Virus record (IMG/VR): IMGVR_UViG_2721755498_000001
DNA length: 47,208 nt
Source of the DNA: a virus
Taxonomy: Duplodnaviria > Heunggongvirae > Uroviricota > Caudoviricetes
Strand: one strand, 5' to 3'
Made by a program: the position numbers and the translations under genes. Of the stretch, positions 1 through 47,169 are shown one piece after another (positions within the stretch are counted from its first letter, which is position 1; the number at the start of each line of letters is the position of its first letter). The notes beneath the pieces are model-generated. The model searched no databases. It had not been told where the DNA came from and saw only the letters and a list, made by a program, of their open reading frames with translations.

Positions 1-300
1 ATGGATGATGTGATCATCTCGTCAAACGATTTGGCCCAATTACAAGCGGCTTACGACGAAGCACTAGTGGCAATGCGTAAATCTGGTTATCAAGCCAACA
101 TGAGTAAAACTCAGGCACCATCGTCAAAGATTAGCGTGTTTAATTTAACTTTGAGTAAGGGAGTTATGAAAGTCACATCTCAGAAAATGAGTGACTTCCT
201 GATTGATTTCTATTCAAGCAATTATGAGCCGCACAGAATAGGGGTCAAAAACTACGTCGAAGCTGTTAATCCAGGGCAAGCGAAACTCTTTAAGTTGTAA
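1..300 (+). CDS. Hypothetical protein, possibly N-terminally truncated by the window edge; lies outside the prophage
   Basis: 99-codon ORF ending at 300; no motif recognised; sits left of the att repeat. Confidence 0.3.
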   Translation: MDDVIISSNDLAQLQAAYDEALVAMRKSGYQANMSKTQAPSSKISVFNLTLSKGVMKVTSQKMSDFLIDFYSSNYEPHRIGVKNYVEAVNPGQAKLFKL

Positions 301-1413: not shown

Positions 1414-1492
1414 ATGATACCTCTAAATGTCAGATCTAAAGTATATCAAAAAAAGGGCTTTATGGCCATCACATAAAACCCTTTTTAATCAA

Positions 1493-3226: not shown

Positions 3227-3250
3227 GTTTGTATCTTGCTCCGTAAAATG

Positions 3251-3267
3251 GCCACAAATTGTGGCCA
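3251..3267. promoter_or_regulatory. Perfect 17-bp palindrome between int stop and ATPase start (terminator or operator candidate)
   Basis: ggccacaaattgtggcc at 3251-3267; followed by ATTTTA on the minus strand. Confidence 0.3.
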
Positions 3268-3284
3268 ATAGTTTCATGCTTGGA

Positions 3285-4451
3285 TTATATTGTTATCTTC
3301 TTCAAGCTTGTTTGTCCATCATATTCCTTCAGATATGAGCCATAGTGCCTGAAAAGCATCTCCGGTCCTTTATGCCCCATTTGAGCTGCAAGCCAAAACA
3401 GGTTTGCTCCCCGGCTGATATGGCGGGTGGCGAATGTATGCCTAGTTTGATATGGATTTCTGTAACGAATACCTGCTTTTCGCAATGTTGGCACCCATGC
3501 TTTTTTTCTGATTGCATCAGCACTTGCCCATGGCTTATTGGTCTTTGGATCTTCAAAGACAGTAGCATCCTTCATGAATGTAAATGGCTTCTGGTTTATC
3601 AACGCCAACATTGCTTCTTCAGTCAGTTCAACTTTACGGGTACCGGCTTTTGTCTTTGTTCCTTTGATAACTCCGACAACACTTGCGCTCTGAACATGGG
3701 CTGTTTTTCCAACAAAGTCGATATCATGCCATCGTAGGGCACATAATTCAGAACTACGCAGGCCTGTATGTATGGCGAACCGGAACAGATTTTCCCATTG
3801 TTTGTTTCCGGCTGCTGCTAGTAATGCATCAACTTCTGCTGGTGATAGCGGATCAACCACATAGCTGCTTTCTGCTTCTGACTTATCACTTTGGTAGCGC
3901 GAAGCTGTTACTAACGATACGGGGTTAATTTGAAGTACCCCATCGGTCACGGCTTCATCAAGTGCTGACCGTAGGAAAGATAACTGGTTGCGAATGGTTT
4001 TTAAGGTTGTTTTCTGGCTTTGAATCCACGCTTTCAGGGTTGCTGGTGTTAATTCACTTGCAGGGCAAATGTGAAGTGAGGCTAACGCACTACGGCATTT
4101 TTTATAGCCACCAATCGTAGAGGGTGAAAGTTTTCTTGTTTCGCAGATTTCAAGATATTCGTCCAGGTACATCTTTACCGTTTTGCCTGCAGCAGCATTA
4201 CCAAAAATTTTCAAACGAGCAGAACGGGGAAAATATTCTGCATAAATGAATGTTCCCCTTTCGATCTTATTATGGATTTCGCCGAGTGTACGCTCGGCGT
4301 ATTTAATGTTCTTTGGTGTTACTTCCAGATTGGAAAGCGGCTCACGACATCTAACTCCTTTGTAGGTGAAAGTTATATTGATCGTTTCTCCCTGGCGGTG
4401 TTTCCTGATTGTTACGCCGCGCGGTAGTTTGAGCAGTTTTGTCTGGCCCAT
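3285..4451 (-). CDS. int: Phage integrase, tyrosine recombinase
   Basis: 388 aa; C-terminal catalytic region with R...H..R...Y context (HTFATRHISRGANLFWLAAQMGHKGPEMLFRHYGSY); next to xis and the att end. Confidence 0.9.
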   Translation of the reverse strand: MGQTKLLKLPRGVTIRKHRQGETINITFTYKGVRCREPLSNLEVTPKNIKYAERTLGEIHNKIERGTFIYAEYFPRSARLKIFGNAAAGKTVKMYLDEYLEICETRKLSPSTIGGYKKCRSALASLHICPASELTPATLKAWIQSQKTTLKTIRNQLSFLRSALDEAVTDGVLQINPVSLVTASRYQSDKSEAESSYVVDPLSPAEVDALLAAAGNKQWENLFRFAIHTGLRSSELCALRWHDIDFVGKTAHVQSASVVGVIKGTKTKAGTRKVELTEEAMLALINQKPFTFMKDATVFEDPKTNKPWASADAIRKKAWVPTLRKAGIRYRNPYQTRHTFATRHISRGANLFWLAAQMGHKGPEMLFRHYGSYLKEYDGQTSLKKITI

Positions 4452-4659: not shown

Positions 4660-5550
4660 TTAACGAATAGTGTCGTTACTTTGAAGTACAGCAAATGCCA
4701 TTAATACTTCTAAAGTATATCTTCTATAAAATTTAACAAAACCAACATAGAAAACATAGACGAAGAAAAAGCTAAGCATTATTGAAAGTAAACTATAAAG
4801 ATAATCACTATGAGTACATAATCGATAAATAAAGGTTGGAACTGATACCCAAAATGAAATTATAAAGATTAAACATATGTTTCTGCAAAAACCATATAAT
4901 GCAACATAGTTTTGAATTTTTGTTTGATGTTGTTTTGAAAACTCATAAACATAATGATATGCCAATCTGAAGAGATCATCATCAAGTCCGTTTTTATCTT
5001 GTAATAATTGGCGATTTGTTATGAACTTTTTCTCATAACCTTCTTTGATCATTAACCATGTTGTATTAGCTAAATGAAATGGTAGAGATTGAGAATAACA
5101 TAGTTTTTGTGTTATAAAATCCCATAGTATTATTGGACATAATACGCATTTGATTATGCGATTCTTTATTTTTGTTTTTTTATCAGCGCTTCTCTCATCG
5201 CATGATGGGCTACAAATGCTTTCTGAGGTATCTATCAATTTTTTAAATAGATATTTGGAAGGATATCCTAATTCTTTATTCATGTATTTTTCGATAAAAA
5301 ATGCTGACGTGATAGAAATAAAATGTCCAGCTATATAAGATATAATAACTATTGAAGCGTAGTTCAAAATGCCAAAGATTTGACTTTGACCTCTGAGCAA
5401 TTCACTTAAGTCAATAACAATATCTAGATCGAATGTCAAACCACAGAAATACATTAATAGGATAAAAAAACCACCTGGTATTAAATATCCAAGAAAGTCA
5501 TAGAATGAGAATGGATTTTGATTCATTGTTGCTCTCCAATAATTTTTCAA
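4660..5550 (-). CDS. Multi-pass membrane protein of unknown function (AT-rich moron)
   Basis: 296 aa with hydrophobic helices at both ends and a soluble middle; strongly AT-rich DNA unlike the flanking phage genes. Confidence 0.55.
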   Translation of the reverse strand: MKNYWRATMNQNPFSFYDFLGYLIPGGFFILLMYFCGLTFDLDIVIDLSELLRGQSQIFGILNYASIVIISYIAGHFISITSAFFIEKYMNKELGYPSKYLFKKLIDTSESICSPSCDERSADKKTKIKNRIIKCVLCPIILWDFITQKLCYSQSLPFHLANTTWLMIKEGYEKKFITNRQLLQDKNGLDDDLFRLAYHYVYEFSKQHQTKIQNYVALYGFCRNICLIFIISFWVSVPTFIYRLCTHSDYLYSLLSIMLSFFFVYVFYVGFVKFYRRYTLEVLMAFAVLQSNDTIR

Positions 5551-5634
5551 TTTGTAATATAACCTATATCTATATGTTAATAAATTACTTATATGTTCTT
5601 TTATGGCAGAGTTTGAATTCGTACGTGCTGATTT

Positions 5635-6186
5635 TTACGACTCAGTTAACTCTTTAAAGCGTTCCATAAACATCCCATAGGTATGGCCTGGCGACAGTGG
5701 AATAACTTTGAACATCTCTGTTGCCGGGATACCTTCCAGTACGGGCCAGAAAGAGCCATCATCAAGCCCGAGATCGCGGCGTTCGGTTGCCAGCATGATG
5801 AGATCGGCATATTTCACGGGCGTACTCATAACCGGGGGTAACCCGTATTTCTCACGGATTACGGCGTCTATTTTTTCTTCCATCCGTTTATAGTCAGGAA
5901 GAAGGCGTTTCAGTGGCGCCGGGATGTCCTGGCAATACGCTTCTGTTGCATCATGCATTAACGCTTCAAAAGCAAATTCCTGCGGTACCAGCTGGCTGCA
6001 AAGCACCGCATGTTGGGCGACGCTGTAGAAATGTGAAAGATGTCCTGCAAAGCGACAGATATTTGAAAGAGAAACCGCGATATCGTTAATAACGATGTCG
6101 TCTTTATTTATCCTGTCATAATAAAAATGCTTCCCGGAAAAAGTTTTAATAAATGACATTTTGTTCTCCACGTATATGCGCTGCAC
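5635..6186 (-). CDS. HD-domain phosphohydrolase-like protein, resembling CPS-53 YfdR
   Basis: 183 aa with H...HD...D pattern (FAGHLSHFY...LMHDATEAYCQD); assignment from memory of the YfdR family. Confidence 0.6.
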   Translation of the reverse strand: MQRIYVENKMSFIKTFSGKHFYYDRINKDDIVINDIAVSLSNICRFAGHLSHFYSVAQHAVLCSQLVPQEFAFEALMHDATEAYCQDIPAPLKRLLPDYKRMEEKIDAVIREKYGLPPVMSTPVKYADLIMLATERRDLGLDDGSFWPVLEGIPATEMFKVIPLSPGHTYGMFMERFKELTES

Positions 6187-6286
6187 CGCGCTGAATTCTG
6201 GTAAAAGAAAGCCCTCACCATCCGGCGATTATTGAGTCAATTACGTTTCCATAAATGCCCCCGCAGGGGCATTTGCAGTAATGAAA

Positions 6287-7111
6287 TCAGGCGGTAAAAG
6301 TACCAATAAAGGTTTCTACTTTGCTGTCCTTGAATTTCTCAACAAGCAGATCACGAAATTCGTTAGCCATTTCTTCCTGCACTGCTTCCAGCTGAATAAT
6401 GCGCAGAACCAGTACAGGACGATCGCCAGTGATAATGCTGAGGCGTAATTTAAACGGACGTTCTTTCAGGCCTTCAAACGGAACGCATTTAAATTCAAAT
6501 GCCACTGGCATAATATCTTTGGTCTTCGCTTCGACAGACTCCATCAGGGAGCGTTTGCCGCTGAAGTCATTGTCTTCAAAATCAGCGGTCTGGTTTGCTT
6601 CAATCGTGATTTTACGGACTGCCGCAGCCGCTTTTGTTGCCTGAATGGCATCACCATTAGCATCAAAGCCCACAAGGTAGTCGGCCCAGTCTTCAATCCA
6701 TTCTGCCAGTGACTTCTGGGAGTTACGCTCGCCGTTAACAGACAACAGAGCAGAGAACGGTGCTGTCTTTTTCAGTTTGAGAGTGGCGGTGTTATCTGCG
6801 TGACCTGGTTCATCAATAGTACCCAGGTTAAGCACACTGACGGCACGCATATTATCGGCATCGATAAAGCAGCGGGTGCCTTCATCTGCAAGATCTTTAG
6901 AATAACGGGTAAAGTCATCGATGCTGGCAGTGGAAAGTGCACCACGGAAACGGAAGCGATTTAAATTAAATTTTTCCAGATCATGAATGCGGAAATTCTC
7001 AGGCAATGCCACAGCATCGGCACCAATCTTACTGATAATTTCATTAACACCCTGAGCAGAAATAAGGGCATGGATTTGATTAATTGCGGTTGCGTCTAAG
7101 TTCTGAGACAT
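6287..7111 (-). CDS. Phage early protein, YfdQ-like (DUF2303-like)
   Basis: 274 aa, the same length as CPS-53 YfdQ; position in the leftward early operon; assignment from memory. Confidence 0.5.
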
Positions 7112-7176
7112 AATAAGTCCTCACTATATAAAGATATTCAGTGATGAGATAAATAATCAGTTAATTAAGAACGATA

Positions 7177-7539
7177 TTAATGACCTGCTGCGCGTAGTTT
7201 TCCGTCAGGTTCACCGGCAAGAGTCAGTAATTGTCCCTGGTCTTCCTGCAGAATAGTCAGGCGACCACCGCGATTGACATACATCGGTGTTTCGGTGGTG
7301 TCTTCTTCGGAAATTTTCCCGCGGTTAGTCGGGCGAACATATGAGAGTTTGTGTTTGATTTTCACACGGTTCTCATCAAATGGTTCGATTTCCAGGTTGA
7401 GCGAGACCTTACCTTTGGTTTTCGTGTTCATCACACCGGAAGCGACTTCACTGAGAACTGCGCCGATTTTGGTTTCAAATACGCCGCCGTCCAGCTCCCC
7501 GATAAATGCCTGCACATCAGTACTGCGTTCGCTAGCCAT
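7177..7539 (-). CDS. Small early protein, YfdP-like
   Basis: Start chosen at the internal ATG (MASERSTDV) preceded by GGAGCAGC; the longer 197-aa ORF upstream has no RBS and overlaps the structured leader. Confidence 0.5.
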   Translation of the reverse strand: MASERSTDVQAFIGELDGGVFETKIGAVLSEVASGVMNTKTKGKVSLNLEIEPFDENRVKIKHKLSYVRPTNRGKISEEDTTETPMYVNRGGRLTILQEDQGQLLTLAGEPDGKLRAAGH

Positions 7540-8241: not shown

Positions 8242-8934
8242 TTAATTGTGTCGCTTAAGGGTTTGTGACTGGCTGATTAAGACCTTTCCAAAGACCATAA
8301 ACCGGTGTTCATTTTCGCTGGTAATTCCCCATTCACGGTAAATCTGGTTATCAGAAATCACCAGTAGTTTGTCAGGTATCATTTGCAGTCGTTTGACATA
8401 AATTTTATCATCAAAACCAAATACATAGATACCATCTCCATCAAACTGATTGATACTGACATCAACGAAGATGAGATCTCCTGGCTCAATGGTTGGACAC
8501 ATACTGTCCCCACGAACGTTGATAACTTTAATGTGATTGGCTGGCCGTCCGCCAAACATCGATACAGCATTATCAGTTCTGTATTCAATGGCATGAATCA
8601 CATCAATGACATCACCGCCCTGGATAAGGCCATTTCCCGCACTGGCACTGACATCCAGCATTTCAATACGGAATACATCCTTCACCTGCGCAACATCCTC
8701 ACTAATACTGTTTTTACATACAGTATTACTTTTGACGTCTGAGGTAAAGAGATCTGCAATATCAACACCTAAGCTCCTGGCAATATTACTCAGGGCTTGT
8801 TCAGTGAATTGTTTCTGCTTACCTGTTTCCAGGCGTGAGATATTCGCCGCATCCACTCCTATTGCTTCAGCGAGATCGGCGATCTTCATGTTCTTCGCCT
8901 GGCGAAGTTGTCTGACTCGGTTTCCTATGTTCAT
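8242..8934 (-). CDS. cI: CI-like prophage repressor (HTH plus S24 LexA-like peptidase domain)
   Basis: N-terminal HTH (MKIADLAEAIGVDAANISRLETG) and C-terminal S24 region (VRGDSMCPTIEPGDLIFVD ... KRL); divergent from cro. Confidence 0.9.
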   Translation of the reverse strand: MNIGNRVRQLRQAKNMKIADLAEAIGVDAANISRLETGKQKQFTEQALSNIARSLGVDIADLFTSDVKSNTVCKNSISEDVAQVKDVFRIEMLDVSASAGNGLIQGGDVIDVIHAIEYRTDNAVSMFGGRPANHIKVINVRGDSMCPTIEPGDLIFVDVSINQFDGDGIYVFGFDDKIYVKRLQMIPDKLLVISDNQIYREWGITSENEHRFMVFGKVLISQSQTLKRHN

Positions 8935-10180: not shown

Positions 10181-11137
10181 ATGAGCACTAAATTAACCGG
10201 CTATGTATGGGATGGTTGCGCTGCATCAGGCATGAAATTATCCAGCGTGGCAATTATGGCCCGCCTGGCTGATTTCAGTAATGACGAAGGTGTGTGCTGG
10301 CCATCAATTGAAACCATTGCCCGTCAGATTGGCGCGGGGATGAGTACCGTCAGAACGGCTATCGCACGGCTGGAAGCAGAAGGCTGGTTAACGCGTAAGG
10401 CGCGTCGCCAGGGTAACCGCAATGCGTCGAATGTTTATCAGCTTAACGTTGCGAAGCTTCAGGCAGCGGCATTTTCTCAACTGTCAGATTCTGACCCGTC
10501 AAAATCTGACGCATCAAAATCTGACGCATCAAAATCTGACCCGTCAAAATTTGATGCGTCGAAATCTGGCAAAAAAGCGGGTTTTCACCCGTCAGAATCT
10601 GGCGGGGATCCGTCAGTAAAATCAAAACATGATCCGTCAGATAAAAAACCTTCTCGTCCGGACGCTTCGCAACCGGACACGCAGACGGCTGAACAGGATT
10701 TTTTAACTCGCCATCCTGATGCGGTTGTATTCAGCCCTAAAAAGCGCCAGTGGGGGACGCAGGATGATTTGACCTGCGCACAGTGGCTCTGGAAAAAAAT
10801 CATCGCCCTGTACGAGCAGGCTGCCGAATGTGACGGCGAGGTGGTTCGTCCCAAAGAACCGAACTGGACAGCCTGGGCAAACGAAATTCGCCTGATGTGT
10901 GTGCAGGATGGTCGTACTCACAAACAAATCTGCGAGATGTACAGCCGCGTCAGCCGCGATCCGTTCTGGTGCCGTAACGTGCTCAGCCCGTCGAAGCTGC
11001 GGGAAAAATGGGATGAGCTTTCTCTGCGCTTATCGCCGTCCGTCAGCACGTACACAGAAAAACGCGAAGACCCGTACTTCAAAGCCAGTTACGACAACGT
11101 GGACTACAGCCAGATCCCGGCAGGATTCAGGGGGTGA
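10181..11137 (+). CDS. Replication initiator, lambda O-like, with internal origin iterons
   Basis: N-terminal HTH region; internal DNA iterons encode an SKSD-repeat peptide. Confidence 0.65.
   Translation: MSTKLTGYVWDGCAASGMKLSSVAIMARLADFSNDEGVCWPSIETIARQIGAGMSTVRTAIARLEAEGWLTRKARRQGNRNASNVYQLNVAKLQAAAFSQLSDSDPSKSDASKSDASKSDPSKFDASKSGKKAGFHPSESGGDPSVKSKHDPSDKKPSRPDASQPDTQTAEQDFLTRHPDAVVFSPKKRQWGTQDDLTCAQWLWKKIIALYEQAAECDGEVVRPKEPNWTAWANEIRLMCVQDGRTHKQICEMYSRVSRDPFWCRNVLSPSKLREKWDELSLRLSPSVSTYTEKREDPYFKASYDNVDYSQIPAGFRG
10486..10650. repeat. Origin-like iterons inside the O-like gene
   Basis: Five 15-bp units at 10486-10560 with the core TCAAAATCTGAC (e.g. ccgtcaaaatctgac, gcatcaaaatctgac), then degenerate CCGTCAG-containing copies to about 10650. 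Confidence 0.6.
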
Positions 11138-16360: not shown

Positions 16361-17413
16361 ATGAAAAATACTGTAAAAATAAACAGTGTTGATTTAATCA
16401 ACGCTGATTGCCTGCATTTTATTCAGTCCCTGCCTGATGATTCCATTGACCTGATTGTTACCGATCCGCCGTACTTCAAGGTGAAACCCAACGGCTGGGA
16501 CAATCAGTGGAAAGGGGACGAAGATTACCTTAAGTGGCTGGACCACTGTCTGGCCCAGTTCTGGCGGGTGTTAAAACCTGCCGGAAGCCTTTACCTGTTC
16601 TGTGGGCATCGCCTGGCATCTGATATTGAGATCATGATGCGTGAACGTTTCAACGTGCTTAACCATATCATCTGGGCGAAGCCGTCCGGACGTTGGAATG
16701 GGTGTAATAAAGAAAGTCTGCGCGCATATTTTCCTGCCACAGAGCGCGTTCTGTTTGCTGAACATTACCAGGGGCCATATCGCGGCAAAAGTGACGGCTA
16801 TGCGGCAAAAGAAAGGGAACTCAAACAGCACATAATGGCACCGCTGATATCGTATTTCAGGGATGCTCGTGCCGAACTGGGTATAACGGCAAAACAAATT
16901 GCCGAAGCCACAGGTAAGAAAAATATGGTTTCCCACTGGTTTGGTGCCAGTCAGTGGCAGTTGCCGAATGAGGCTGACTATCGGAAGTTACAGGCACTGT
17001 TTTCCCGTATAGCGGCAGAGAAGTTTCAGGAACAACAACTGGAACAACCACACCACCAGCTGGTGGCATCTTATGATTCACTGAATCGCAAATATTCTGA
17101 ATTGCTGGATGAGTTTAAATCTCTCCGGCGCTATTTCTCCGTATCAGTCTCCGTGCCTTATACCGATGTCTGGATGCATAAACCCGTTCAGTTCTACCCG
17201 GGTAAACATCCGTGTGAGAAACCGGCGGATATGCTCAGGCAAATAATCAATGCCAGTAGTCGACCTGGTGATCTGGTTGCTGATTTTTTTATGGGATCCG
17301 GTTCCACAATAAAAGCAGCAATGGCGCTGGGGCGTCGGGCCTTAGGTGTTGAGCTTGAGTCAGAGCGGTTTAACCAGACAGTGAAAGAGATAAACGAGCT
17401 GGTGGGGAAATAA
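16361..17413 (+). CDS. Orphan beta-class DNA methyltransferase (N6-adenine or N4-cytosine)
   Basis: Motif [11 protein letters not shown] near the N-terminus and motif I FFMGSGST near the C-terminus (beta-class order); no adjacent nuclease gene. Confidence 0.8.
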
Positions 17414-20163: not shown

Positions 20164-22265
20164 TGCTGAATCAGGAAACCGCAAAGGCAGCACGAACCGA
20201 TTCAGGTTATATCCTTCGCGCACCGAGACGAATGCGGGTTGCTGATGCCGTTGCTCAGTATATGCGGGTGCCCATGGGGGCAGGGAACTCAGTCCCGTGG
20301 GATCCGCTGGTGGCACCGTATGTTATTGAGCCGATGAACTGCCTGGCCTCGCGTGAATACGACGCAGTGATATTTGTTGGCCCGGCACGAACCGGCAAGA
20401 CTATCGGCCTGATTGACGGCTGGGTGATTTACAACGTGATTTGCGATCCTGCTGATATGCTGATTATTCAGATGACGGAGGAAAAAGCCCGCGAACACTC
20501 CAAAAAACGACTCGCCAGAACGTTTCGCGTCAGCCCGGAAGTGGTCAGTCGCCTGAGTCCGAACAAAAATGACAACAACGTTTATGACAGAACATTCCTT
20601 GCTGGTAACTACCTGAAAATCGGCTGGCCGTCAGTCAATATCATGTCCTCATCAGATTATAAATGCGTCGCGCTGACGGATTATGACCGTTTTCCGGAAG
20701 ATATTGATGGCGAGGGGGATGCTTTCTCTCTTGCCTCAAAACGTACCACAACATTTATGTCCAGTGGTATGACGCTGGTGGAGAGTTCCCCCGGCAGGGA
20801 TGTGAAGGATGTGAAATGGCGACGGACTTCACCGCATGAGGCTCCACCAACCACGGGGATACTGTCGCTCTATAACCGTGGCGATCGCCGTCGCTGGTAC
20901 TGGCCCTGTCCACACTGTGGTGAGTATTTTCAGCCCTGCGGCGATGTGGTTGCTGGTTTCCGTGATATTGCCGATCCCGTGCTGGCAAGTGAGGCGGCTT
21001 ATATTCAGTGTCCTTCCTGTTCAGGACGGATTATGCCTGAACAAAAACGTGAGCTGAACGGACGTGGGGTCTGGTTGCGGGATGGTGAATCCATCAATGC
21101 GGATGGCAGTCGTTATGGTGATCCCCGACGCTCACGTATTGCGTCATTCTGGATGGAGGGTCCGGCAGCTGCTTACCAGACACTCTCGCAACTCGTTTAC
21201 AAACTGCTTACTGCAGAACAGGAATACGAGACAACCGGAAGTGAAGAGACACTCAAGACGGTTATCAATACCGACTGGGGATTACCTTATCTTCCCCGCG
21301 CCAGCATGGAGCAACGAAAAAGTGAACTGCTTGAGCAGCGGGCAGAGCCAGTTCCTTCCCGCAGTGTGCCGGATGGCGTTAATTTTCTTGTGGCGACAGT
21401 GGATGTGCAGGCGGGACGTCATCGCCGTTTTGTGGTTCAGGTAACGGGCTATGGCAGCCGTGGCGAACGCTGGATTATTGATCGTTACAACATCACGCAG
21501 TCATTGCGCGGTGACAGCGACGGGGAGAGCCAGCGAATTGATCCGGCCAGCTATCCGGAAGACTGGGATGTCCTGCTGACGGATGTTTTTCATAAAAGCT
21601 GGCCGCTGGCCTCCGATCCTTCTCAACAAATGCGACTGATGGCAATGGCGGTGGACTCCGGCGGTGAAGACGGGGTCACTGATAATGCCTATAAATTCTG
21701 GCGTCGTTGCCGTCGTGATGGCCTTGGTAAACGTATTTACCTGTTTAAGGGCGACAGCATCCGGCGCGCAAAACTGATCACCCGTACATTCCCTGATAAC
21801 ACCGGACGAACGGGCCGACGGGCGCAGGCTGCAGGTGATGTGCCGCTCTGGCTTCTTCAGACGGATGCACTGAAAGACCGGGTGAATAACGCGTTATGGC
21901 GTGACTCGCCAGGTCCCGGCTATGTGCATTTCCCTGACTGGCTGGGGAGCTGGTTTTACGACGAACTGACGTATGAAGAGCGGAGCAGTGACGGGAAATG
22001 GAGTAAGCCGGGTCGCGGTGCCAACGAAGCTTTTGACCTGATGGTGTATGCCGAGGCTCTGGTCATTCTGCATGGATACGAAAAGATCCGCTGGCCGGAT
22101 GCACCGGAGTGGGCGAGCCGGGAAACCTGGCTGGAGTGTGTCCCGGACAGTACCGAACCGTCACCCTCACCGGAACCGGTATCCACGCCTGTTAAAAAAC
22201 AAAAACGGAAGAAAACAGTAACTGACGATGTTAACCCCTGGCTGACTTCCGGAGGATGGTTATGA
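20163..22265 (+). CDS. Terminase large subunit (gpA-like)
   Basis: 700 aa; ATPase motif VIFVGPARTGKT; position between small terminase and portal. Confidence 0.85.
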   Translation: MLNQETAKAARTDSGYILRAPRRMRVADAVAQYMRVPMGAGNSVPWDPLVAPYVIEPMNCLASREYDAVIFVGPARTGKTIGLIDGWVIYNVICDPADMLIIQMTEEKAREHSKKRLARTFRVSPEVVSRLSPNKNDNNVYDRTFLAGNYLKIGWPSVNIMSSSDYKCVALTDYDRFPEDIDGEGDAFSLASKRTTTFMSSGMTLVESSPGRDVKDVKWRRTSPHEAPPTTGILSLYNRGDRRRWYWPCPHCGEYFQPCGDVVAGFRDIADPVLASEAAYIQCPSCSGRIMPEQKRELNGRGVWLRDGESINADGSRYGDPRRSRIASFWMEGPAAAYQTLSQLVYKLLTAEQEYETTGSEETLKTVINTDWGLPYLPRASMEQRKSELLEQRAEPVPSRSVPDGVNFLVATVDVQAGRHRRFVVQVTGYGSRGERWIIDRYNITQSLRGDSDGESQRIDPASYPEDWDVLLTDVFHKSWPLASDPSQQMRLMAMAVDSGGEDGVTDNAYKFWRRCRRDGLGKRIYLFKGDSIRRAKLITRTFPDNTGRTGRRAQAAGDVPLWLLQTDALKDRVNNALWRDSPGPGYVHFPDWLGSWFYDELTYEERSSDGKWSKPGRGANEAFDLMVYAEALVILHGYEKIRWPDAPEWASRETWLECVPDSTEPSPSPEPVSTPVKKQKRKKTVTDDVNPWLTSGGWL

Positions 22266-38647: not shown

Positions 38648-38711
38648 TTAGCCAGGTAACACAGTGTTATGACAGCCCGCCGTTTCAGGTGGGCTTTTTT
38701 GTGGGGTGAAT

Positions 38712-41700
38712 ATGGCAGTAAAAATTTCAGGTGTACTGAAAGACGGCACAGGAAAACCGGTACAGAACTGCACAATCCAGCTGAAAGCAAAACGTAACAG
38801 TACCACGGTGGTGGTGAACACGCTGGCATCTGAAAATCCGGATGAAGCCGGGCGTTACAGTATGGACGTTGAGTACGGTCAGTACAGCGTTATTCTGTTG
38901 GTGGAAGGATTCCCGCCGTCACATGCCGGGACCATCACAGTGTATGAAGATTCCCGACCCGGTACGCTGAATGATTTTCTCGGTGCCATGACGGAGGATG
39001 ATGCCCGTCCGGAGGCACTGCGCCGTTTTGAGCTGATGGTGGAAGAGGTGGCGCGTAACGCGTCCGTGGTGGCACAGAACACGGCAGCCGCGAAGAAGTC
39101 AGCCAGTGATGCCAGCACATCAGCCCGTGAGGCGGCAACCCATGCGACTGATGCTGCAGGCTCAGCACGCGCAGCCAGCACATCAGCCGGGCAGGCCGCT
39201 TCGTCGGCTCAGTCAGCGTCTTCCAGCGCAGGAACGGCATCAACAAAGGCCACTGAAGCGGAAAAAAGTGCTGCCGCTGCAGAGTCCTCAAAAAGCGCGG
39301 CAGCTACCAGTGCCGGTGCGGCGAAAACGTCAGAAACGAATGCGGCAGCGTCACAAAAATCTGCAGCCACTTCTGCATCCGCAGCGACCACAAAGGCGTC
39401 AGAAGCTGCCACCTCAGCCCGGGATGCGGCGGCCTCAAAAGAGGCAGCGAAATCATCAGAAACGAACGCATCATCAAGCGCCAGTAGTGCCGCTTCCTCG
39501 GCAACGGCGGCAGGAAATTCCGCGAAGGCGGCAAAAACGTCCGAGACGAACGCCAGGTCTTCTGAAACGGCAGCGGGACAGAGTGCCTCAGCTGCGGCAG
39601 GCTCAAAAACAGCGGCTGCATCATCTGCCAGTGCCGCATCAACAAGTGCCGGGCAGGCCTCAGCCAGTGCCACCGCTGCCGGAAAGTCGGCAGAAAGTGC
39701 CGCATCGTCTGCTTCAACAGCCACAACGAAGGCTGGCGAAGCCACTGAACAGGCCAGCGCAGCAGCGAGGTCAGCTTCCGCAGCGAAGACATCCGAAACG
39801 AACGCGAAAGCGTCGGAAACCCGTGCAGAATCCTCAAAAACGGCTGCCGCATCGTCAGCCAGTTCGGCGGCGTCATCGGCATCATCGGCGTCTGCTTCAA
39901 AAGATGAGGCGACCAGACAGGCGTCAGCAGCGAAGGGCAGCGCCACGACGGCATCCACGAAGGCGACAGAGGCAGCTGGCAGTGCGACGGCGGCAGCTCA
40001 GAGCAAAAGTACGGCGGAATCTGCAGCAACGCGCGCTGAGACAGCGGCAAAACGGGCAGAGGATATTGCATCCGCCGTGGCGCTTGAGGATGCAAGTACG
40101 ACGAAAAAGGGGATAGTACAGCTCAGCAGTGCGACCAACAGCACGTCTGAAACGCTGGCGGCAACGCCAAAGGCAGTAAAAGCAGCCTATGACAATGCAG
40201 AGAAACGTCTGCAGAAAGACCAGAACGGCGCTGATATACCCGATAAGGGACGCTTCCTGAACAACATTAACGCGGTCAGTAAAACAGACTTTGCTGATAA
40301 GCGTGGTATGCGTTATGTGCGGGTTAACGCTCCTGCAGGTGCAACATCTGGAAAATATTACCCTGTTGTTGTTATGCGTTCTGCTGGCTCAGTAAGCGAA
40401 CTGGCATCAAGGGTCATTATCACCACGGCAACGCGAACCGCAGACGATCCGATGAATAACTGCGAGTTTAACGGATTTGTTATGCCTGGTGGCTGGACTG
40501 ACAGGGGGCGTTATGCTTATGGAATGTTCTGGCAATATCAAAACAATGAACGAGCCATCCACTCAATAATGATGAGTAATAAGGGCGATGATTTGCGCTC
40601 TGTGTTCTATGTTGATGGCGCTGCTTTCCCTGTTTTTGCGTTCATCGAAGATGGCCTGTCAATATCCGCACCTGGTGCTGATCTCGTTGTTAATGATACG
40701 ACCTATAAGTTTGGGGCAACAAATCCGGCGACTGAATGTATCGCGGCGGACGTTATCCTTGATTTTAAGAGTGGGCGTGGTTTTTATGAGTCCCATTCGT
40801 TAATCGTTAACGATAACTTGTCGTGCAAAAAACTTTTTGCCACAGACGAAATTGTAGCGCGTGGTGGTAATCAGATTCGAATGATAGGTGGGGAGTATGG
40901 TGCATTATGGCGTAATGATGGCGCTAAAACTTACCTGCTGCTTACCAATCAAGGTGATGTTTATGGTGGCTGGAATACATTAAGACCGTTTGCTATTGAT
41001 AACGCAACCGGCGAACTGGTTATTGGAACCAAACTGTCCGCAAGTCTGAACGGTAACGCATTGACAGCAACAAAGCTGCAAACGCCAAGACTGGTTTCTG
41101 GTGTTGAGTTTGATGGTTCCAGAGATATTACTTTAACCGCCGCGCATGTGGCTGCTTTTGCCAGAAGGGCAACGGATACATATGCCGATGCGGATGGTGG
41201 CGTTCCCTGGAATGCCGAATCAGGTGCTTACAATGTCACCCGCTCTGGCGACAGCTATATTCTGGTTAACTTCTATACCGGAGTCGGAAGTTGCCGGACC
41301 TTGCAGATGAAGGCGCATTACAGAAATGGTGGTCTGTTCTACCGTTCTTCAAGAGACGGTTATGGTTTTGAGGAAGACTGGGCAGAAGTTTATACCTCGA
41401 AAAATCTTCCACCAGAAAGCTACCCAGTCGGCGCACCAATCCCGTGGCCATCAGATACCGTTCCGTCTGGTTATGCCCTGATGCAGGGGCAGACTTTTGA
41501 CAAATCTGCTTACCCGAAACTTGCAGCCGCTTATCCGTCAGGCGTGATCCCTGATATGCGTGGCTGGACGATTAAGGGCAAACCTGCCAGTGGTCGGGCC
41601 GTATTGTCTCAGGAACAGGACGGCATTAAATCGCATACCCACAGCGCCAGCGCATCCAGTACGGATTTGGGGACGAAAACCACATCGTCGTTTGATTACG

Positions 41701-42062
41701 GCACTAAATCCACGAATAACACTGGTGCGCATACCCATAGTGTTAGCGGTACGGCTGCTTCAGCCGGTGCACATACCCATTCGATGACATTTGTTTCAGG
41801 TGGTTCCAGTGGTGCTCCGGGAAGTGGATCACCTGATTATTCTAAATACAGTGTTAACACTTCTTCTGCAGGCGCTCATACGCACTCTGTATCGGGTACT
41901 GCTGCAAGCGCAGGTGCACACGCACATACTGTCGGTATTGGTGCTCATACGCACTCCGTTGCGATTGGCTCACATGGACACACCATCACCGTTAACGCTG
42001 CTGGTAACGCGGAAAACACCGTCAAAAACATCGCATTTAACTATATTGTGAGGCTTGCATAA
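38712..42062 (+). CDS. stf: Side tail fibre protein with Ala/Ser/Thr-rich repeats and C-terminal His-x-His repeats
   Basis: Low-complexity central region with repeated AAKTSETNA units; C-terminal GAHTHS repeats; followed by tfa. Confidence 0.8.
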
Positions 42063-42646
42063 TGGTATTCAGAATGAGTGAACAACCACGGACCATAACA
42101 ATTTATAATCTGCTGGCCGGAACTAATGAATTTATTGGTGAAGGTGATGCATATATTCCGCCTCATACAGGTCTGCCAGCAAACAGTACCGATATTGCAC
42201 CGCCAGATATTCCGGCAGGCTTCGTGGCTGTTTTCAACAGTGATGAGGCATCGTGGCATCTCGTTGAAGATCATCGGGGTAAAACGGTTTATGACGTAGC
42301 GTCAGGGGACGCGTTATTTATTTCTGAACTCGGTCCGTTACCGGAAAATGTTACCTGGTTATCGCCGGAAGGGGAGTTTCAGAAGTGGAACGGCACAGCC
42401 TGGGTGAAAGATGCAGAAGCAGAAAAACTGTTCCGGATCCGGGAGGCGGAAGAAACAAAAAACAGCCTGATGCAGGTAGCCAGTGAGCATATTGCGCCAC
42501 TTCAGGATGCTGTAGATCTGGAAATCGCAACGGAGGAAGAAACCTCATTGCTGGAAGCCTGGAAAAAGTATCGGGTGTTGCTGAACCGTGTTGATACATC
42601 AACTGCACCGGATATTGAGTGGCCAGAAGAACCAGACACCGTGTAA
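42062..42646 (+). CDS. tfa: Tail fibre assembly protein
   Basis: 194 aa immediately after stf; N-terminal region resembles Tfa. Confidence 0.75.
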
Positions 42647-42649
42647 GCA

Positions 42650-42697
42650 AAAAAGAAAAACCGCAGACACGACGTATGCATGACGTGCTGCGGTTTA
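42650..42697. terminator. Bidirectional terminator between tfa and the GIY-YIG gene
   Basis: A-tract, hairpin ccgcag ... ctgcgg (42661-42692), then tttatg; lies between convergent genes. Confidence 0.5.
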
Positions 42698-42715
42698 TGC
42701 TTATCACTTAAAGAC

Positions 42716-43534
<819 letters not shown>

Positions 43535-43895
43535 TCATTGCAAGGGCTCACAACCAGTAGTGTTGAGAAAACCATCGGAGAAATGAGGCTAAGCCTTTGA
43601 ATTTACATAGTACAAAAAAGATACTTTTCCTCATAATGTGAGCTAATTTTATGTTTCGTTTGATGATTGGACCGGTCTCGAAAACCGTAGACACATAGTA
43701 TGCGTTAATTTATGAACAAACTACTTGTCTGCTGTTTTTCTGTCATTAGTCGTATATAGAATGATTCTCTATGCCTAACAAAGCATCACCAGTGCTAGAT
43801 TACGTTGTAGTCACTGTTTAAATATCCAGATAAAACATTTCCTTCTGGGTTGAATGAGTGATAAAGTTTCACCCATTAGACCCCTTGGAGGAATT

Positions 43896-45329
43896 ATGTC
43901 TGAATTTGAAGTGTTGGCACAGCATCTGCTGAAGGAAGCCGAGGCGGAAGAAAAGCTGCGACAGGAAAATGATAAAAAGCTTATCGAGAAAGTGCTGGAA
44001 ATCTATGATCAGAAGTATGTGGCTGAATTACTGAGAAAAGTCGGAAAAAATGAGTGGAGCCGTGAAACCATTAACCGCTGGATTAATGGCAAGTGTTTAC
44101 CAAAATCGTTGACTTCAGTAGAAGAGTCTCTTCTGCGTAAGATGCTACCAGAACCACCTGCAAACCATCCGGAATATGCTTTCCGCTTCATTGACTTATT
44201 TGCTGGAATTGGAGGGATACGGAAAGGTTTTGAGGCCATTGGAGGCCAGTGTGTTTTTACCAGTGAATGGAATAAAGATGCTGTGCGTACATACAAGGCC
44301 AACTGGTTTAACGATGAACAGGTGCATAAATTCAATCTCGATATTCGGGAAGTCACGCTGAGTGATAAAACCGATGTATTGGAAACGGATGCTTATGCAT
44401 ATATTGATGAGCATGTGCCGGATCATGATGTGCTTCTTGCGGGGTTCCCGTGCCAGCCATTTAGCCTTGCTGGTGTTAGTAAGAAAAACTCACTTGGTCG
44501 TGCGCATGGTTTTGAATGTGAAGCACAAGGAACACTTTTTTTTGACGTGGCACGTATTATACGAGCAAAAAAACCGGCAATTTTTGTGCTGGAAAATGTC
44601 AAAAATCTGAAGAGCCATGATAAGGGTAAAACTTTCAAAGTCATTATGGAGACCCTTGACGAGCTGGGCTACGAAGTTGCCGATGCTGCAGAAATGGGAA
44701 AAAACGATCCAAAGATTATCGATGGGAAGCATTTTTTGCCTCAGCATCGTGAACGCATTGTTCTGGTCGGATTTAGACGAGATCTGAATATTCACAAGGG
44801 GTTTACCTTGCGTGATATCAGTCGTTTTTATCCGGAACACCGCCCATCATTTGGTGAATTGCTGGAGCCTGTAGTCGACAGTAAATATATACTTACGCCA
44901 AAACTATGGGAGTACCTTTATAACTACGCCAAAAAGCATGCAGCCAAGGGGAATGGTTTTGGCTTTGGGTTGGTCAATCCTGAGAATAAGGAAAGCATTG
45001 CACGCACACTTTCTGCCAGATATCACAAAGACGGATCAGAAATTCTTATTGATCGTGGTTGGGATATGGCAACGGGAGAGGCTGACTTTATGAATGAGAG
45101 TAATCAGGCTCGTCGACCACGCAGGCTGACTCCCCGAGAGTGCGCACGCCTTATGGGATTTGAAAAACCTGGAGGGAAACCATTCCGTATTCCGGTTTCA
45201 GATACTCAGTCATATCGGCAGTTCGGTAACTCAGTTGTGGTGCCAGTATTTGAAGCTGTTGCCAGACTTCTGGAACCCTATATCCTCAAAGCTGTTTCTG
45301 CTGATGCTGGTAAGACTGGGCAGCCTTGA
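43896..45329 (+). CDS. DNA cytosine-5 methyltransferase, Dcm / M.EcoRII-like
   Basis: Motif [16 protein letters not shown], motif [10 protein letters not shown], motif VI ENVKNL; N-terminal region close to E. coli Dcm; 477 aa from the RBS-supported ATG, the length recalled for M.EcoRII. Confidence 0.9.
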
Positions 45330-45363
45330 GAACATCTCCCGGCCTTTTAAGCCGGGAGTCAGC

Positions 45364-46578
45364 CTATGATAGTTCAGCGTAAAGCTCTATCAGCTCAGTA
45401 ATGAATGCTCCGAGCGTTATTAATTCTTCTCTAACTGCTTCTGGGTATTTTTTATGTAAAGTTGATGGTACAACGAGTCTGACACCCGCATCTTTCATTT
45501 CTCGGTATTGTGCTGAAGAAACACCTTCTTGCAGTGTAAATAAATGTACCTGATGGATTTTATCTGCTTCATTCAGTATCTGACGCCAGCGATCTTTGCA
45601 GGTGGTCTTTACTGCCAGCATACGTAAGTTTTCTACAGGAAATTCAACGTTATGATATGCCTCTGCTGAAGGAAACAGGAAATCTGGTTTTTTATTACCT
45701 TCAGTAACTGCCTGAGTGGAGAAATGCCGTAGTCCGTGCTCGATAAAAAGCTTCTCTAGGTGAAGTTCAAGTGATTTGCCTGCCCTTGATTTACGTCGAT
45801 TACTGACAGAGTTGGCTAATGCAATAAACTCATCTACAGAATCGAATCCTTTCTTAATAATATCAAGAACATGTAATTCCTCGACGAGTAGAAAAATATC
45901 ATACTCGACACGCCGACGGTCAATCAGTTGCTCATCTGGATCCTTGGAGTTTTTAGCATAATGGCCAGCAGCATATTGAATAATTTCGTTTCCAGAAGGA
46001 AAACGCTTCTTCCAGTCTTCAGGAATAACATATTTATGATTTACTGGAGTTTGCTGAAGAGACAATCCGCCCAAAATTTGTCCGGCAGGGCCGGAAATTA
46101 GGGTTCCAGGTATGATTTCGCCAATAGCAGACTCGATGATATCCTCTTCATCGGGATTGACGCAGACCCATATATCTACCTCGGAACAGTCAGTGTTCTG
46201 TTCGTTTAACCTGAAAGCAAGAATTGTGAGGGCTCCTGTATTTTCAGGGTTCTGTAATGGACTTCCTCTCCCCCAGCGCGTAATTCTTTTTTCGTTTCGG
46301 GTCTTACCAAAATAACGGTTGTTGTAATAAATTGCGCGTGCTTGGGTATCAGGGCAATCATGGGATGATACATGCGCAGTAAGGAAGACTGAAGGGTTCA
46401 GTTCGCGAGTATGATTGATAGATGGAAAAAGCTTTTCAACGATATTTGAGGGGATATAAAGTCCGACCTGATGGCCACCTGTTGCGCCTGTGTCGTTTGC
46501 AGAAAGGCGTTTGATGTAGATAAAGTAATTCCCGCTTGCGATATCAAGCAGCCAGTTATGAAAAACCGACATATACAT
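45364..46578 (-). CDS. Type IIE restriction endonuclease, EcoRII-like
   Basis: 404 aa, the length recalled for R.EcoRII; convergent with a Dcm-like methyltransferase; identity from memory, not search-confirmed. Confidence 0.65.
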   Translation of the reverse strand: MYMSVFHNWLLDIASGNYFIYIKRLSANDTGATGGHQVGLYIPSNIVEKLFPSINHTRELNPSVFLTAHVSSHDCPDTQARAIYYNNRYFGKTRNEKRITRWGRGSPLQNPENTGALTILAFRLNEQNTDCSEVDIWVCVNPDEEDIIESAIGEIIPGTLISGPAGQILGGLSLQQTPVNHKYVIPEDWKKRFPSGNEIIQYAAGHYAKNSKDPDEQLIDRRRVEYDIFLLVEELHVLDIIKKGFDSVDEFIALANSVSNRRKSRAGKSLELHLEKLFIEHGLRHFSTQAVTEGNKKPDFLFPSAEAYHNVEFPVENLRMLAVKTTCKDRWRQILNEADKIHQVHLFTLQEGVSSAQYREMKDAGVRLVVPSTLHKKYPEAVREELITLGAFITELIELYAELS

Positions 46579-46651
46579 CCCTTTGTTAACATACAGTCAG
46601 GGTTAACATTTTTCCATAGTTATAGATAAGCGGCTAGGAACTTAAGGGAAA

Positions 46652-46683
46652 AACAAAAAGCCCGCATAAGCGGGCTTTTGTGT
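46652..46683 (-). terminator. Rho-independent terminator downstream of ssrA (bidirectional hairpin)
   Basis: aaagcccgc-ataa-gcgggcttt flanked by an A-tract and a T-tract. Confidence 0.55.
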
Positions 46684-46806
46684 CACTCGAGAGCCGCGGC
46701 TCCTTTGCGTATCCTTTTTTGTCTCCTCACCGTCTGGTCGGTGTCCTGCTGAGACTGCTAACTTCCTGTTTTTGTTGGTGTTGTCCTTACACCGTCCAAT
46801 CATGAT

Positions 46807-46839
46807 TGGTGGAGCTGGCGGGAGTTGAACCCGCGTCCG
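46807..46839. repeat. attR core: ssrA 3' end, duplicated at 409-441
   Basis: Matches 409-441 with one mismatch. Confidence 0.85.
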
Positions 46840-47169
46840 AAATTCCTACATCCTCGGTACTACATGCTTAGTCAGTCTTTACATTCGCTTGCCAGCTGCG
46901 GACGGACACGCCACTAACAAACTAGCCTGATTAAGTTTTAACGCTTCAACCCCAGGCAGGACTTCCACGCGATCTCTTTTGGGTTTGACCTCTCTTGATC
47001 CCCGTCCTAAGAGCGGAGGCTAGGGAGAGAGGGCTCTAAGCAGGTTATTAAGCTGCTAAAGCGTAGTTTTCGTCGTTTGCGACTATTTTTTGCGGCTTTT
47101 TACGAGGCCAACCGCCCCTCGGCATGCACCTTGGGTTTCGCAAATCCCGTCGAATCCAGAATCAGCCCC
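46807..47169 (-). ncRNA. ssrA: tmRNA (SsrA), 363 nt
   Basis: Reverse complement runs from GGGGCTGATTCTGGATTCGACGGG to the tRNA-like 3' end CCAGCTCCACCA; tag-encoding region recognisable. Confidence 0.95.

Follow-up and report, generated by a model that had tools for sequence, protein, structure and literature searches.

A probably intact type IIE restriction-modification system of the EcoRII family, a moron of an ssrA-integrating lambdoid prophage

Results

Two convergent genes beside attR

The whole stretch of DNA analysed here, a window of 47,208 nt, contains a lambdoid prophage that looks complete and has a 28-nt ssrA repeat at each end. Inside it, 228 bp from attR, lie an ecoRIIM-type methyltransferase gene (termed M) and an ecoRIIR-type nuclease gene (termed R). 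The features of the prophage that concern this pair are as follows.

408-435, no strand assigned: attL core, a displaced copy of the ssrA 3' end (direct-repeat family D5)
3285-4451, minus strand: tyrosine integrase at the attL end (Pfam Arm-DNA-bind_2, 9.7e-24; Phage_integrase, 1.2e-16)
42716-43489, minus strand: GIY-YIG nuclease PD-T4-3, also known as CMoRE (type IV, hmC/ghmC DNA; PADLOC, PDB 9U75)
43704-46637, no strand assigned: variable cargo slot with M and R, delimited by comparison with the related ssrA prophage L007
43896-45329, plus strand: M, predicted to encode a 477-aa DNA (cytosine-5) methyltransferase whose N-terminal domain is DNA_meth_N (repressor-type)
45364-46578, minus strand: R, a predicted 404-aa type IIE restriction endonuclease (Pfam and PDB 1NA6 matches)
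46806-46833, no strand assigned: attR core, 28 nt identical to 408-435 and overlapping the ssrA 3' end
46807-47169, minus strand: ssrA, the tmRNA gene used as integration target; R lies on the same strand (ARAGORN; Rfam RF00023, 295.5 bits)

M and R are convergent with 34 nt between their stop codons, so that the gene of a cognate C5 methyltransferase adjoins R. The slot in which they lie is situated between the tail-fibre genes and attR of the prophage, which is inserted in the E. coli ssrA gene. The L007 prophage is 97.7-98.4% identical to ours up to 43703 and again from 46638, and its slot holds genes for an ImmA/IrrE, an HTH and a BRO-N protein instead of M and R. In a near-identical copy of the prophage (M10) all modules are present. 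Moreover, the cassette to which M and R belong recurs at 98-99% identity in pinE prophages and in a contractile-tail phage that integrates at dusA. Thus, the pair is a moron, that is prophage cargo: it lies inside the att sites, the contents of its slot vary among near-identical prophages and it recurs in unrelated phages.

The window contains 94 CCWGG sites. Avoidance of this motif was not found in the phage core (70 sites observed versus 76 expected), so the phage's own DNA would be a substrate of R unless it is methylated.

M belongs to the M.EcoRII/Dcm subfamily

A Pfam profile search of the M protein detects the DNA_methylase domain (PF00145, 4.4e-78) and, in residues 28-84, DNA_meth_N (PF18284, 6.6e-27). 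The match to NCBIfam PRK10458 (NF007772) scores 927.4 bits and exceeds the curated subfamily cut-off of 710. Motifs I (FAGIGG, 102), IV (PCQ, 185, with the catalytic Cys186), VI (ENV, 233), VIII (QHRER, 283) and X (GNS, 444) are present. The protein is 90.6% identical to plasmid M.EcoRII and 66.3% identical to K-12 Dcm; in the variable region, the stretch between motifs VIII and IX, identity to the plasmid allele reaches 93%. Judged by its sequence, M is a member of the M.EcoRII/Dcm subfamily of C5 DNA methyltransferases, and its overall and variable-region identity to plasmid M.EcoRII suggests that it methylates the inner C of CCWGG. A GGAGG Shine-Dalgarno sequence lies 7 nt 5' of its ATG at 43896. 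A longer, 491-aa open reading frame starting at 43854 was dropped, since M in RefSeq and on the EcoRII plasmid both begin at the equivalent of 43896.

M shares with E. coli Dcm the C5 methyltransferase activity class, the NCBIfam subfamily, the N-terminal domain and presumably the CCWGG specificity. Dcm, however, is an orphan that overlaps vsr and has no nuclease, whereas M is without vsr and faces a convergent nuclease gene. We considered the chromosomal orphan dcm-vsr locus, with its overlapping vsr and its yedA/yedJ neighbours, as an identity for M and rejected it: M lies in a prophage, has a nuclease partner and is only 66% identical.

R has both domains and all published functional residues of EcoRII

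Residues 18-165 of R match EcoRII-N (PF09217, 3.9e-61), the B3-like pseudobarrel effector DNA-binding domain, and residues 229-393 match EcoRII-C (PF09019, 2.4e-71), the PD-(D/E)XK catalytic domain; NCBIfam holds no model that matches R. The alignment with R.EcoRII (PDB 1NA6, 3e-243) is gap-free over residues 1-403 at 86.1% identity, with 56 of the 403 residues different. The separate structures of the N-terminal (3HQF, 7.6e-100) and C-terminal (3HQG, 3.8e-128) domains are matched as well. Using the list of functional residues in PMC2770665, we found all 29 catalytic and DNA-contact residues conserved. These comprise the catalytic residues E271, D299, K324 and E337, the CC:GG readers K328, D329 and R330 (the triad) with N260 and R262, the flipped-base pocket R222, E225, Y226, F229, R265 and A266, and the effector-domain contacts N28, H36, Q37, Y41, R81, Y85, K92, T93, R94, E96, R98, T100 and R101. 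R is thus predicted to be a full-length EcoRII-family type IIE nuclease. From the 86% identity and the conserved residues we infer that it cleaves /CCWGG only with extra unmethylated effector sites, and that C5 methylation of the inner C blocks cleavage. In RefSeq the gene starts at 46572, the second ATG, where the AAGGG is better spaced and the product has 402 aa.

These results bear out the main identifications of a first-pass annotation made from the sequence alone, namely a 477-aa Dcm-like cytosine-5 methyltransferase, which is of the M.EcoRII type by Pfam, motifs and identity, and a 404-aa protein resembling R.EcoRII. For the latter, a lack of similarity to EcoRII-family enzymes had been named as a refutation, and strong similarity was found instead; the E-values for both proteins are far beyond what chance would give. 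The EcoRII sizes and convergent layout cited there agree with plasmid EcoRII, and the placement next to attR holds: ssrA adjoins the repeat and the integrase is at the opposite end.

Gene layout and regulatory signals

Four further features flank or separate the two genes.

43814-43895, plus strand: putative promoter/operator, the 82 nt before M, which are conserved in the plasmid EcoRII allele
45336-45358, no strand assigned: spacer hairpin between the convergent stops, an 8-bp GC-rich stem, CTCCCGGC-CTTTTAA-GCCGGGAG
46579-46637, minus strand: upstream region of R, part of the variable slot; a -10-like TATAAC lies at 46624-46619
46656-46679, minus strand: terminator-like hairpin between ssrA and R; TGTTTTT follows a 10-bp stem that contains 6 GC pairs

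From 43814 on the sequence resembles the plasmid EcoRII locus, and the alignment is nearly invariant up to the M ATG. The autoregulation of M.EcoRII described by Som & Friedman, as summarised in PMC12707154, suggests that this region serves as promoter/operator for repression by M. An inverted-repeat search of the 406-nt M upstream region found nothing. By eye, a short CCAGA...TCTGG pair can be seen within the conserved 82 nt; we do not claim it as an operator.

The spacer hairpin is probably a bidirectional terminator. Its centroid fold has an energy of -15.9 kcal/mol, with a z-score of -1.7 that is modest by itself, and the plasmid allele keeps a 7-bp stem (CTCCCGG/CCGGGAG) with a different loop. 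Upstream of R, the TATAAC element is conserved as TATAAT in the plasmid allele when the two upstream sequences are set side by side, and it may be part of the R promoter. A sigma-70 and terminator consensus scan of 43400-46900 gave no enrichment of promoters over shuffled sequence (8 called versus 6.6 expected); none was called for M or R, and TATAAC was not called either. The hairpin at 46656-46679 falls in the segment that is common to L007, which lacks the restriction-modification pair.

Relation to known systems

As plasmid EcoRII reference we used the copy on pACN001-A, alongside the prototype R.EcoRII structures PDB 1NA6/3HQF/3HQG. Identity to the plasmid allele is 79-81% at the DNA level and 87-91% at the protein level. 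The two alleles share the gene sizes (477 and 404 aa), the convergent order with a 33-34 nt spacer and 7 of the 8 stem pairs of the GC hairpin in it. Also common to both are the 82-nt region before M, the motifs and the N-terminal domain of the methyltransferase, and the two R domains with the residues for catalysis and DNA contact. Unlike the plasmid allele, which sits among plasmid genes, the present pair is on prophages rather than conjugative plasmids and is linked to PD-T4-3/CMoRE; outside 43814-46588 the neighbouring sequences are not related. With dS at about 1.65, dN/dS between the two alleles amounts to 0.033 (M) and 0.048 (R), which indicates strong purifying selection on both genes. 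The pair is a diverged intact copy of the well-known EcoRII system, ordinary and already annotated.

A CCWGG-type restriction-modification module on a temperate phage is also known from Burkholderia phage KL3, which carries EcoRII-C/Vsr/Dcm (PMC3091744). Its nuclease is the only cultured-phage homologue that we found (38.6% identity over the C domain, tblastn). However, KL3 gp45 aligned only with R residues 171-397, the N-terminal effector domain that defines type IIE being undetected in that search, and the KL3 module includes vsr and has co-oriented genes (PMC3091744). More distant are the base-flipping nucleases PspGI, Ecl18kI and SsoII, which recognise CCWGG or CCNGG. They have the catalytic fold and CC:GG reading of EcoRII-C (PMC2770665), but they lack an effector domain, are only distantly similar in sequence (structures of this group match R with E-values of 1.9e-4 and 4.3e-4) and, in the case of Ecl18kI and SsoII, accept any central base.

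Distribution and the linked CMoRE gene

Of 5426 complete E. coli genomes, 261 contain the R allele at ≥99% identity, with a generic annotation. A longer query hits 376 genomes; the gap between the two counts is likely due to this query also picking up the plasmid EcoRII allele (~80% identity, 84% query coverage). At least 80% of the R gene is retained at ≥99% identity in 262 of 263 records, and R is truncated in the remaining one (H127). This conservation within the allele reflects recent spread and is uninformative on selection.

In 243 of the 261 genomes M and R form a three-gene cassette with PD-T4-3/CMoRE. The PD-T4-3 gene matches its PADLOC model over the full length (7.6e-140) and PDB 9U75 (5.1e-171). 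CMoRE cuts hmC/ghmC DNA and leaves DNA with 5mC or unmodified C uncut (PMC12923530).

Megablast and tblastn searches of 50,697 phage records revealed no close homologue of the M-R pair; all that matched was Burkholderia KL3, ssrA fragments and two uncultured fragments. Carriage of the pair by infectious virions is suggested by two 43.7-kb circular assemblies labelled plasmids, AH02 on the basis of its inspected gene content and the other by a 97%-coverage match. A 30-kb 'plasmid' match (H51) was rejected as an excised phage; it contains chromosomal pao/ecp genes and resembles a chromosomal fragment.

Host Dcm and the question of addiction

The dcm and vsr genes are found together in 5358 of the 5426 complete E. 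coli genomes (98.7%), and in strain GPEC1035 dcm coexists with the present R gene. The first-pass annotation had cautioned that host Dcm, if present, would overlap in specificity; this near-universal enzyme presumably recognises the same CCWGG. Host Dcm probably limits what the M-R pair can do.

This bears on the proposal, also made in the first-pass annotation, that the pair acts as an addiction module, its main role being to stabilise the prophage by post-segregational killing. The pair is carried by a mobile element, and for EcoRII, as for some other type II systems, it has been demonstrated that the host is killed when the genes are lost or M is inactivated (PMC2993543, Table 1). However, chromosomal Dcm is reported to suppress EcoRII post-segregational killing, a 'molecular vaccination' (PMC2993543, citing Takahashi et al. 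2002), and Dcm is near-universal, at least one carrier of the present R gene included. With such a Dcm of the same specificity, the phage would bring in or lose the nuclease without killing the host, and the pair would have little addiction value. We consider the addiction proposal weak and unlikely to describe the main role.

For restriction, near-universal Dcm would mean that it is chiefly Dcm-negative or under-methylating sources whose DNA is kept out. In conjugation assays, EcoRII restricted plasmids only from dcm- donors and none from dcm+ donors (PMC11602122). The earlier expectation that the prophage restricts incoming unmodified DNA is thus probably right, but over a narrow range that leaves DNA of dcm+ donors unrestricted.

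Discussion

Very probably, the restriction-modification system at this locus is an intact member of the EcoRII family (type IIE), which an ssrA-integrating lambdoid prophage carries as a moron in its tail-fibre-to-attR slot. By analogy with the EcoRII literature, M would methylate the inner cytosine of CCWGG at C5 and repress its own promoter through its N-terminal domain, and R would be an autoinhibited dimer. Its N-terminal B3-like domains would first bind unmethylated CCWGG effector sites, after which the C-terminal PD-(D/E)XK dimer would flip the central base pair and cut before the first C. Since effector binding is a precondition, cleavage by R would need two or three unmethylated sites. 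Incoming DNA without CCWGG methylation would be destroyed in a lysogen, and the likely role of the pair is restriction of such DNA from Dcm-negative sources.

The adjacent CMoRE/PD-T4-3 would cover hmC/ghmC-modified T-even DNA, which is expected to escape EcoRII, and would leave 5mC DNA uncut. It is conceivable, though we hold it only tentatively, that the three genes are a co-selected 'cytosine-status' defence cassette that recombines between unrelated phages and whose carriage is made affordable by Dcm. 5mC at CCWGG would then mark self, unmodified CCWGG would be cut by R, and the hmC/ghmC DNA that escapes would be cut by CMoRE. Such a cassette may spread by recombination, dragging along a fossil ssrA-type att core, and universal Dcm would pre-protect the chromosomes of new hosts, so that there would be neither a cost of establishment nor killing after loss.

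An alternative as improbable as addiction is that the pair is expressed mainly after induction, as a lytic-cycle weapon against competing or superinfecting DNA. This has been proposed for the EcoRII-C/Vsr/Dcm module of KL3 (PMC3091744), to which R has its tblastn match, and the cassette does lie at the end of the late tail-gene region. Yet M and R are not co-oriented with the late operon, and each has an upstream region of its own that is conserved in the plasmid allele. In addition, a terminator-like hairpin stands between R and read-through from ssrA, and the chromosome of a Dcm+ host would not be a substrate.

Slightly less probable still is a decayed or silent system, in which R is inactive or unexpressed and M serves as a second, orphan-like Dcm. 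Host Dcm would make R dispensable for marking self and non-self, no promoter was confidently called in the scan of 43400-46900 and one truncated R is on record. Against decay, R is full length with its functional residues intact, it has been constrained over the divergence from the plasmid allele, it is retained in all other records, and the active plasmid allele shares both the -10-like element and the spacer hairpin. That the 9-14% protein divergence, including the 56 residues by which R differs from 1NA6, has moved recognition off CCWGG, for example to the CCNGG read by the same-fold relatives Ecl18kI (PMC2577355) and SsoII, is very improbable, because the variable region of M is nearly that of M.EcoRII and unmatched specificities of R and M would be lethal, whereas strong constraint is seen on both genes.

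As an EcoRII-family system carried by a prophage, the pair adds an allele to the plasmid-borne one, present in about 5% of complete E. coli genomes, clinical isolates included. The practical value of the finding is modest; the pair could hinder transformation, conjugation or phage therapy that uses DNA or phage from dcm- laboratory hosts. For the biology of these elements, it means that the one type II system against which an orphan methylase of the host pre-vaccinates is also one that temperate phages carry. This agrees with the idea that Dcm disarms EcoRII as a selfish element and leaves its use in defence against Dcm-negative DNA, and the tight linkage to the recently characterised CMoRE offers a testable case of complementary defences travelling together.

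An EcoRII-type pair at the right end of the prophage

Both open reading frames lie in the window exactly where the first-pass annotation had placed them:

43896-45329, plus strand: M, C5 methyltransferase gene, 477 aa, GGAGG 7 nt 5' of the ATG
46578-45364, minus strand: R, nuclease gene, ORF of 404 aa

The two genes are convergent, with 34 nt between the opposed stop codons. The M start at 43896 is that of the identical copies in RefSeq and of the plasmid EcoRII M gene; an alternative upstream ATG at 43854, used by neither, was rejected. For R, the RefSeq start lies two codons further in (402 aa), where the spacing to AAGGG fits better. RefSeq already gives the pair a generic annotation, and the EcoRII family is among the best studied.

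The first-pass identification of the nuclease as EcoRII-type is borne out. R carries both Pfam domains, EcoRII-N (3.9e-61) and EcoRII-C (2.4e-71), and aligns gap-free with the solved R.EcoRII structure (PDB 1NA6) over residues 1-403 (E = 3e-243). Identity extends to 347 of the 403 residues, with the C domain (87.0%) slightly ahead of the N domain (84.9%). The DNA-bound EcoRII structures (PMC2770665) supplied the list of functional residues, and each was checked in the alignment. The active site (E271, D299, K324, E337), the half-site readers (K328, D329, R330, N260, R262), the flipped-base pocket (R222, E225, Y226, F229, R265, A266) and the effector-domain contacts (N28, H36, Q37, Y41, R81, Y85, K92, T93, R94, E96, R98, T100, R101) are all identical; with Y308, this makes 29 of 29. 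R thus possesses the complete type IIE architecture and the apparatus for reading CCWGG.

The assignment of M as a Dcm-like enzyme of the M.EcoRII type holds as well. M contains the DNA_methylase (4.4e-78) and N-terminal DNA_meth_N (6.6e-27) domains, scores 927 bits in the NCBIfam Dcm/EcoRII subfamily (threshold 710) and shows motifs I, IV (PCQ, Cys186), VI, VIII and X. Its amino acid identity is 90.6% to the EcoRII M of plasmid pACN001-A and 66.3% to K-12 Dcm, and identity to the plasmid allele reaches 93% in the variable region from motif VIII to IX. Unlike chromosomal dcm, which has an overlapping vsr, M is without vsr. The pair is thus a member of the EcoRII family on every criterion that sequence can test, with enzymatic specificity and effector requirement as predictions.

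As in the EcoRII literature, M would methylate the inner C of CCWGG, and R would be released from autoinhibition by the binding of unmethylated effector sites to its N domains; its C-domain dimer would then flip the central pair and cut before the first C (PMC2770665). The prophage core, with 70 CCWGG sites where its composition predicts 76, depends on methylation and does not avoid the site. According to a review (PMC12707154), the N-terminal domain of M.EcoRII mediates repression of its own promoter after the sites have been methylated, R being unaffected; by analogy, the window M may regulate itself in the same way. An inverted-repeat search upstream of M mapped no operator.

Comparison with the plasmid allele

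Similarity at about 80% nucleotide identity in 536 plasmid records spans 43814-46588, an interval that takes in both genes together with 82 nt 5' of M and 10 nt 5' of R. Since pACN001-A encodes an R protein with just a few differences from 1NA6, its locus is the canonical EcoRII. Window and plasmid alleles are 80.9% (M) and 78.8% (R) identical in nucleotides and 90.6% and 86.9% in protein, with dN/dS (Nei-Gojobori) of 0.033 for M and 0.048 for R at a dS of about 1.65, showing strong purifying selection on both genes since the alleles split. What the sequence shows is a pair of intact genes under constraint, each with its complete architecture. In the spacer, the hairpin stem CTCCCGG/CCGGGAG is kept in the plasmid allele (7 of the window's 8 pairs, with a different loop), a -10-like element (TATAAC/TATAAT) lies about 45 nt upstream of R in both alleles, and the block upstream of M is almost unchanged. 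What sets the pair apart from the prototype is its sequence (86-91% amino acid identity), its location on prophages where the prototype is on conjugative plasmids, and its linkage with CMoRE.

Prophage context

The following features frame the pair:

408-435 and 46806-46833: 28-nt exact repeat of the ssrA 3' end
3285-4451: integrase, prophage interior, between the repeats
38706-42062: tail fibre gene
42062-42646: tail-fibre assembly gene, ORF
42716-43489, minus strand: full-length GIY-YIG gene PD-T4-3/CMoRE (PADLOC 7.6e-140; PDB 9U75 5e-171)
46807-47169, minus strand: ssrA

An S24 repressor and a Q antiterminator also lie between the repeats, and these phage genes and the repeats place the pair within the prophage; its distance from the attR core is 228 bp, and its position is the counterpart of the lambda b region. 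A close relative in strain M10 shares this layout as a whole, is 97.6% identical over the right 25 kb, and carries annotated genes for lysis, terminase, portal, capsid and tail. R lies directly 3' of ssrA on the same strand (46579-46806 between them), with a terminator-like hairpin (46679-46656) as the sole separator. ssrA is a highly expressed gene, and read-through from it could add to R expression after integration.

Several other elements were observed. Two low-GC (33%) genes on the minus strand (514-3277), also present in M10, separate the attL core from the integrase and may form a second defence locus at the opposite prophage end. One encodes a D12 adenine methyltransferase (PD-Lambda-5_B, 1e-123), the other an AAA_15/AAA_21 ATPase of 594 aa for which the top defence-library matches (PtuA, AriA and GajA) cover the ATPase motif only. 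A third DNA methyltransferase (N6_N4_Mtase, 2.2e-42) is found at 16361-17413 (plus strand), with the Q antiterminator on one side and the lysis genes on the other. At 10469-10568, inside ORF 10181-11137 (HTH_36 domain), a 15-nt unit (TCAAAATCTGACGCA-like) is repeated five times in tandem; the array looks like origin iterons in a lambda O-type replication initiator gene. An Rfam IS009 match at 42405-42603 (plus strand; 229.5 bits, gathering score 117) lies wholly inside the tail-fibre assembly gene. Outside the prophage, an ORF entering from the left edge (1-300, plus strand) ends in a weak RVT_1 match (3.6e-5, below the Pfam cut-off); it may be part of an element of the retron or group II intron type, in the adjacent ssrA island.

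A recurrent cassette in a cargo slot

This R allele occurs at 99% identity or more in 261 of 5426 complete E. coli genomes, almost always on the chromosome and annotated as 'type II restriction endonuclease'. A longer query found 376 genomes; the excess is probably the plasmid allele, whose approximately 80%-identical matches span 84% of that query. In 243 of the 261 genomes the match reaches across the CMoRE gene, and several hundred further genomes have CMoRE without the pair. Recent work on CMoRE describes a type IV nuclease whose substrates are hmC and glucosyl-hmC DNA, with 5mC and unmodified DNA left intact (PMC12923530); the text of that paper lacks the words 'prophage', 'adjacent' and 'genomic context'.

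A related ssrA prophage (L007) is collinear with the window up to 43703 and again from 46638; at its positions 5001-7461 (window 43704-46637) it carries an ImmA/IrrE metallopeptidase, an HTH protein and a BRO-N protein instead of M and R. This other cargo at the same place marks 43704-46637 as a swappable slot and the interval between CMoRE and attR as a cargo-exchange hotspot.

Among complete genomes no exact match to the window's right-hand 25 kb was found (best 97.3-98.3%); the cassette of CMoRE, M and R alone is 100% identical in many of them. Temperate phages of quite another kind also carry the block 42658-46834, at 98-99% identity: pinE-bearing prophages of strains Sanji and AHM21C2872I and a contractile-tail, dusA-integrating phage of strain AH02 (43.7-kb circle). 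The latter, NZ_CP081704.1, is a 43,680-bp circular 'plasmid' comprising a complete temperate phage genome with contractile tail, dusA-type integrase and cassette, and is probably an excised or replicating prophage wrongly labelled. NZ_CP081794.1 (43,671 bp) has the same block (97% of the query at 98.8% identity). In non-ssrA carriers a fossil ssrA-type att core closes the block, exact in L002 (4769-4796), with 2 mismatches in L005 (about 8443-8470) and degenerate in NZ_CP081704.1 (about 21443-21465); beyond it the three share sequence unrelated to ssrA. The fossil core suggests an ssrA-integrating phage as the source, with the cassette taken from its attP region. Megablast and tblastn against 50,697 phage records gave no close homologue in cultured phages, the only phage precedent being the EcoRII-C/Vsr/Dcm module of Burkholderia phage KL3.

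Probable role in Dcm+ hosts

The anticipated overlap with host Dcm is near-universal in E. coli, dcm and vsr being present in 5358 of 5426 genomes, and at least one carrier, GPEC1035, has dcm together with this R gene. According to PMC2993543, citing Takahashi 2002, Dcm suppresses EcoRII host killing, and in EcoRII conjugation assays plasmids from dcm- donors were restricted but those from dcm+ donors were not (PMC11602122). The suggestion that the pair acts as an addiction module is therefore weak, and the proposed restriction of incoming unmodified DNA stands but is narrow in range, defence being limited to DNA arriving without CCWGG methylation. Rapidly replicating phage DNA can be Dcm-under-methylated, which would broaden the target range.

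It is possible, though we would sooner doubt it than assert it, that CMoRE, M and R form a complementary 'cytosine-status' cassette, an idea that draws on their demonstrated co-occurrence in the 243 genomes and on a functional synergy that we infer. The argument from host Dcm also suggests how a phage can afford to carry R: a Dcm+ recipient is protected before the phage arrives.
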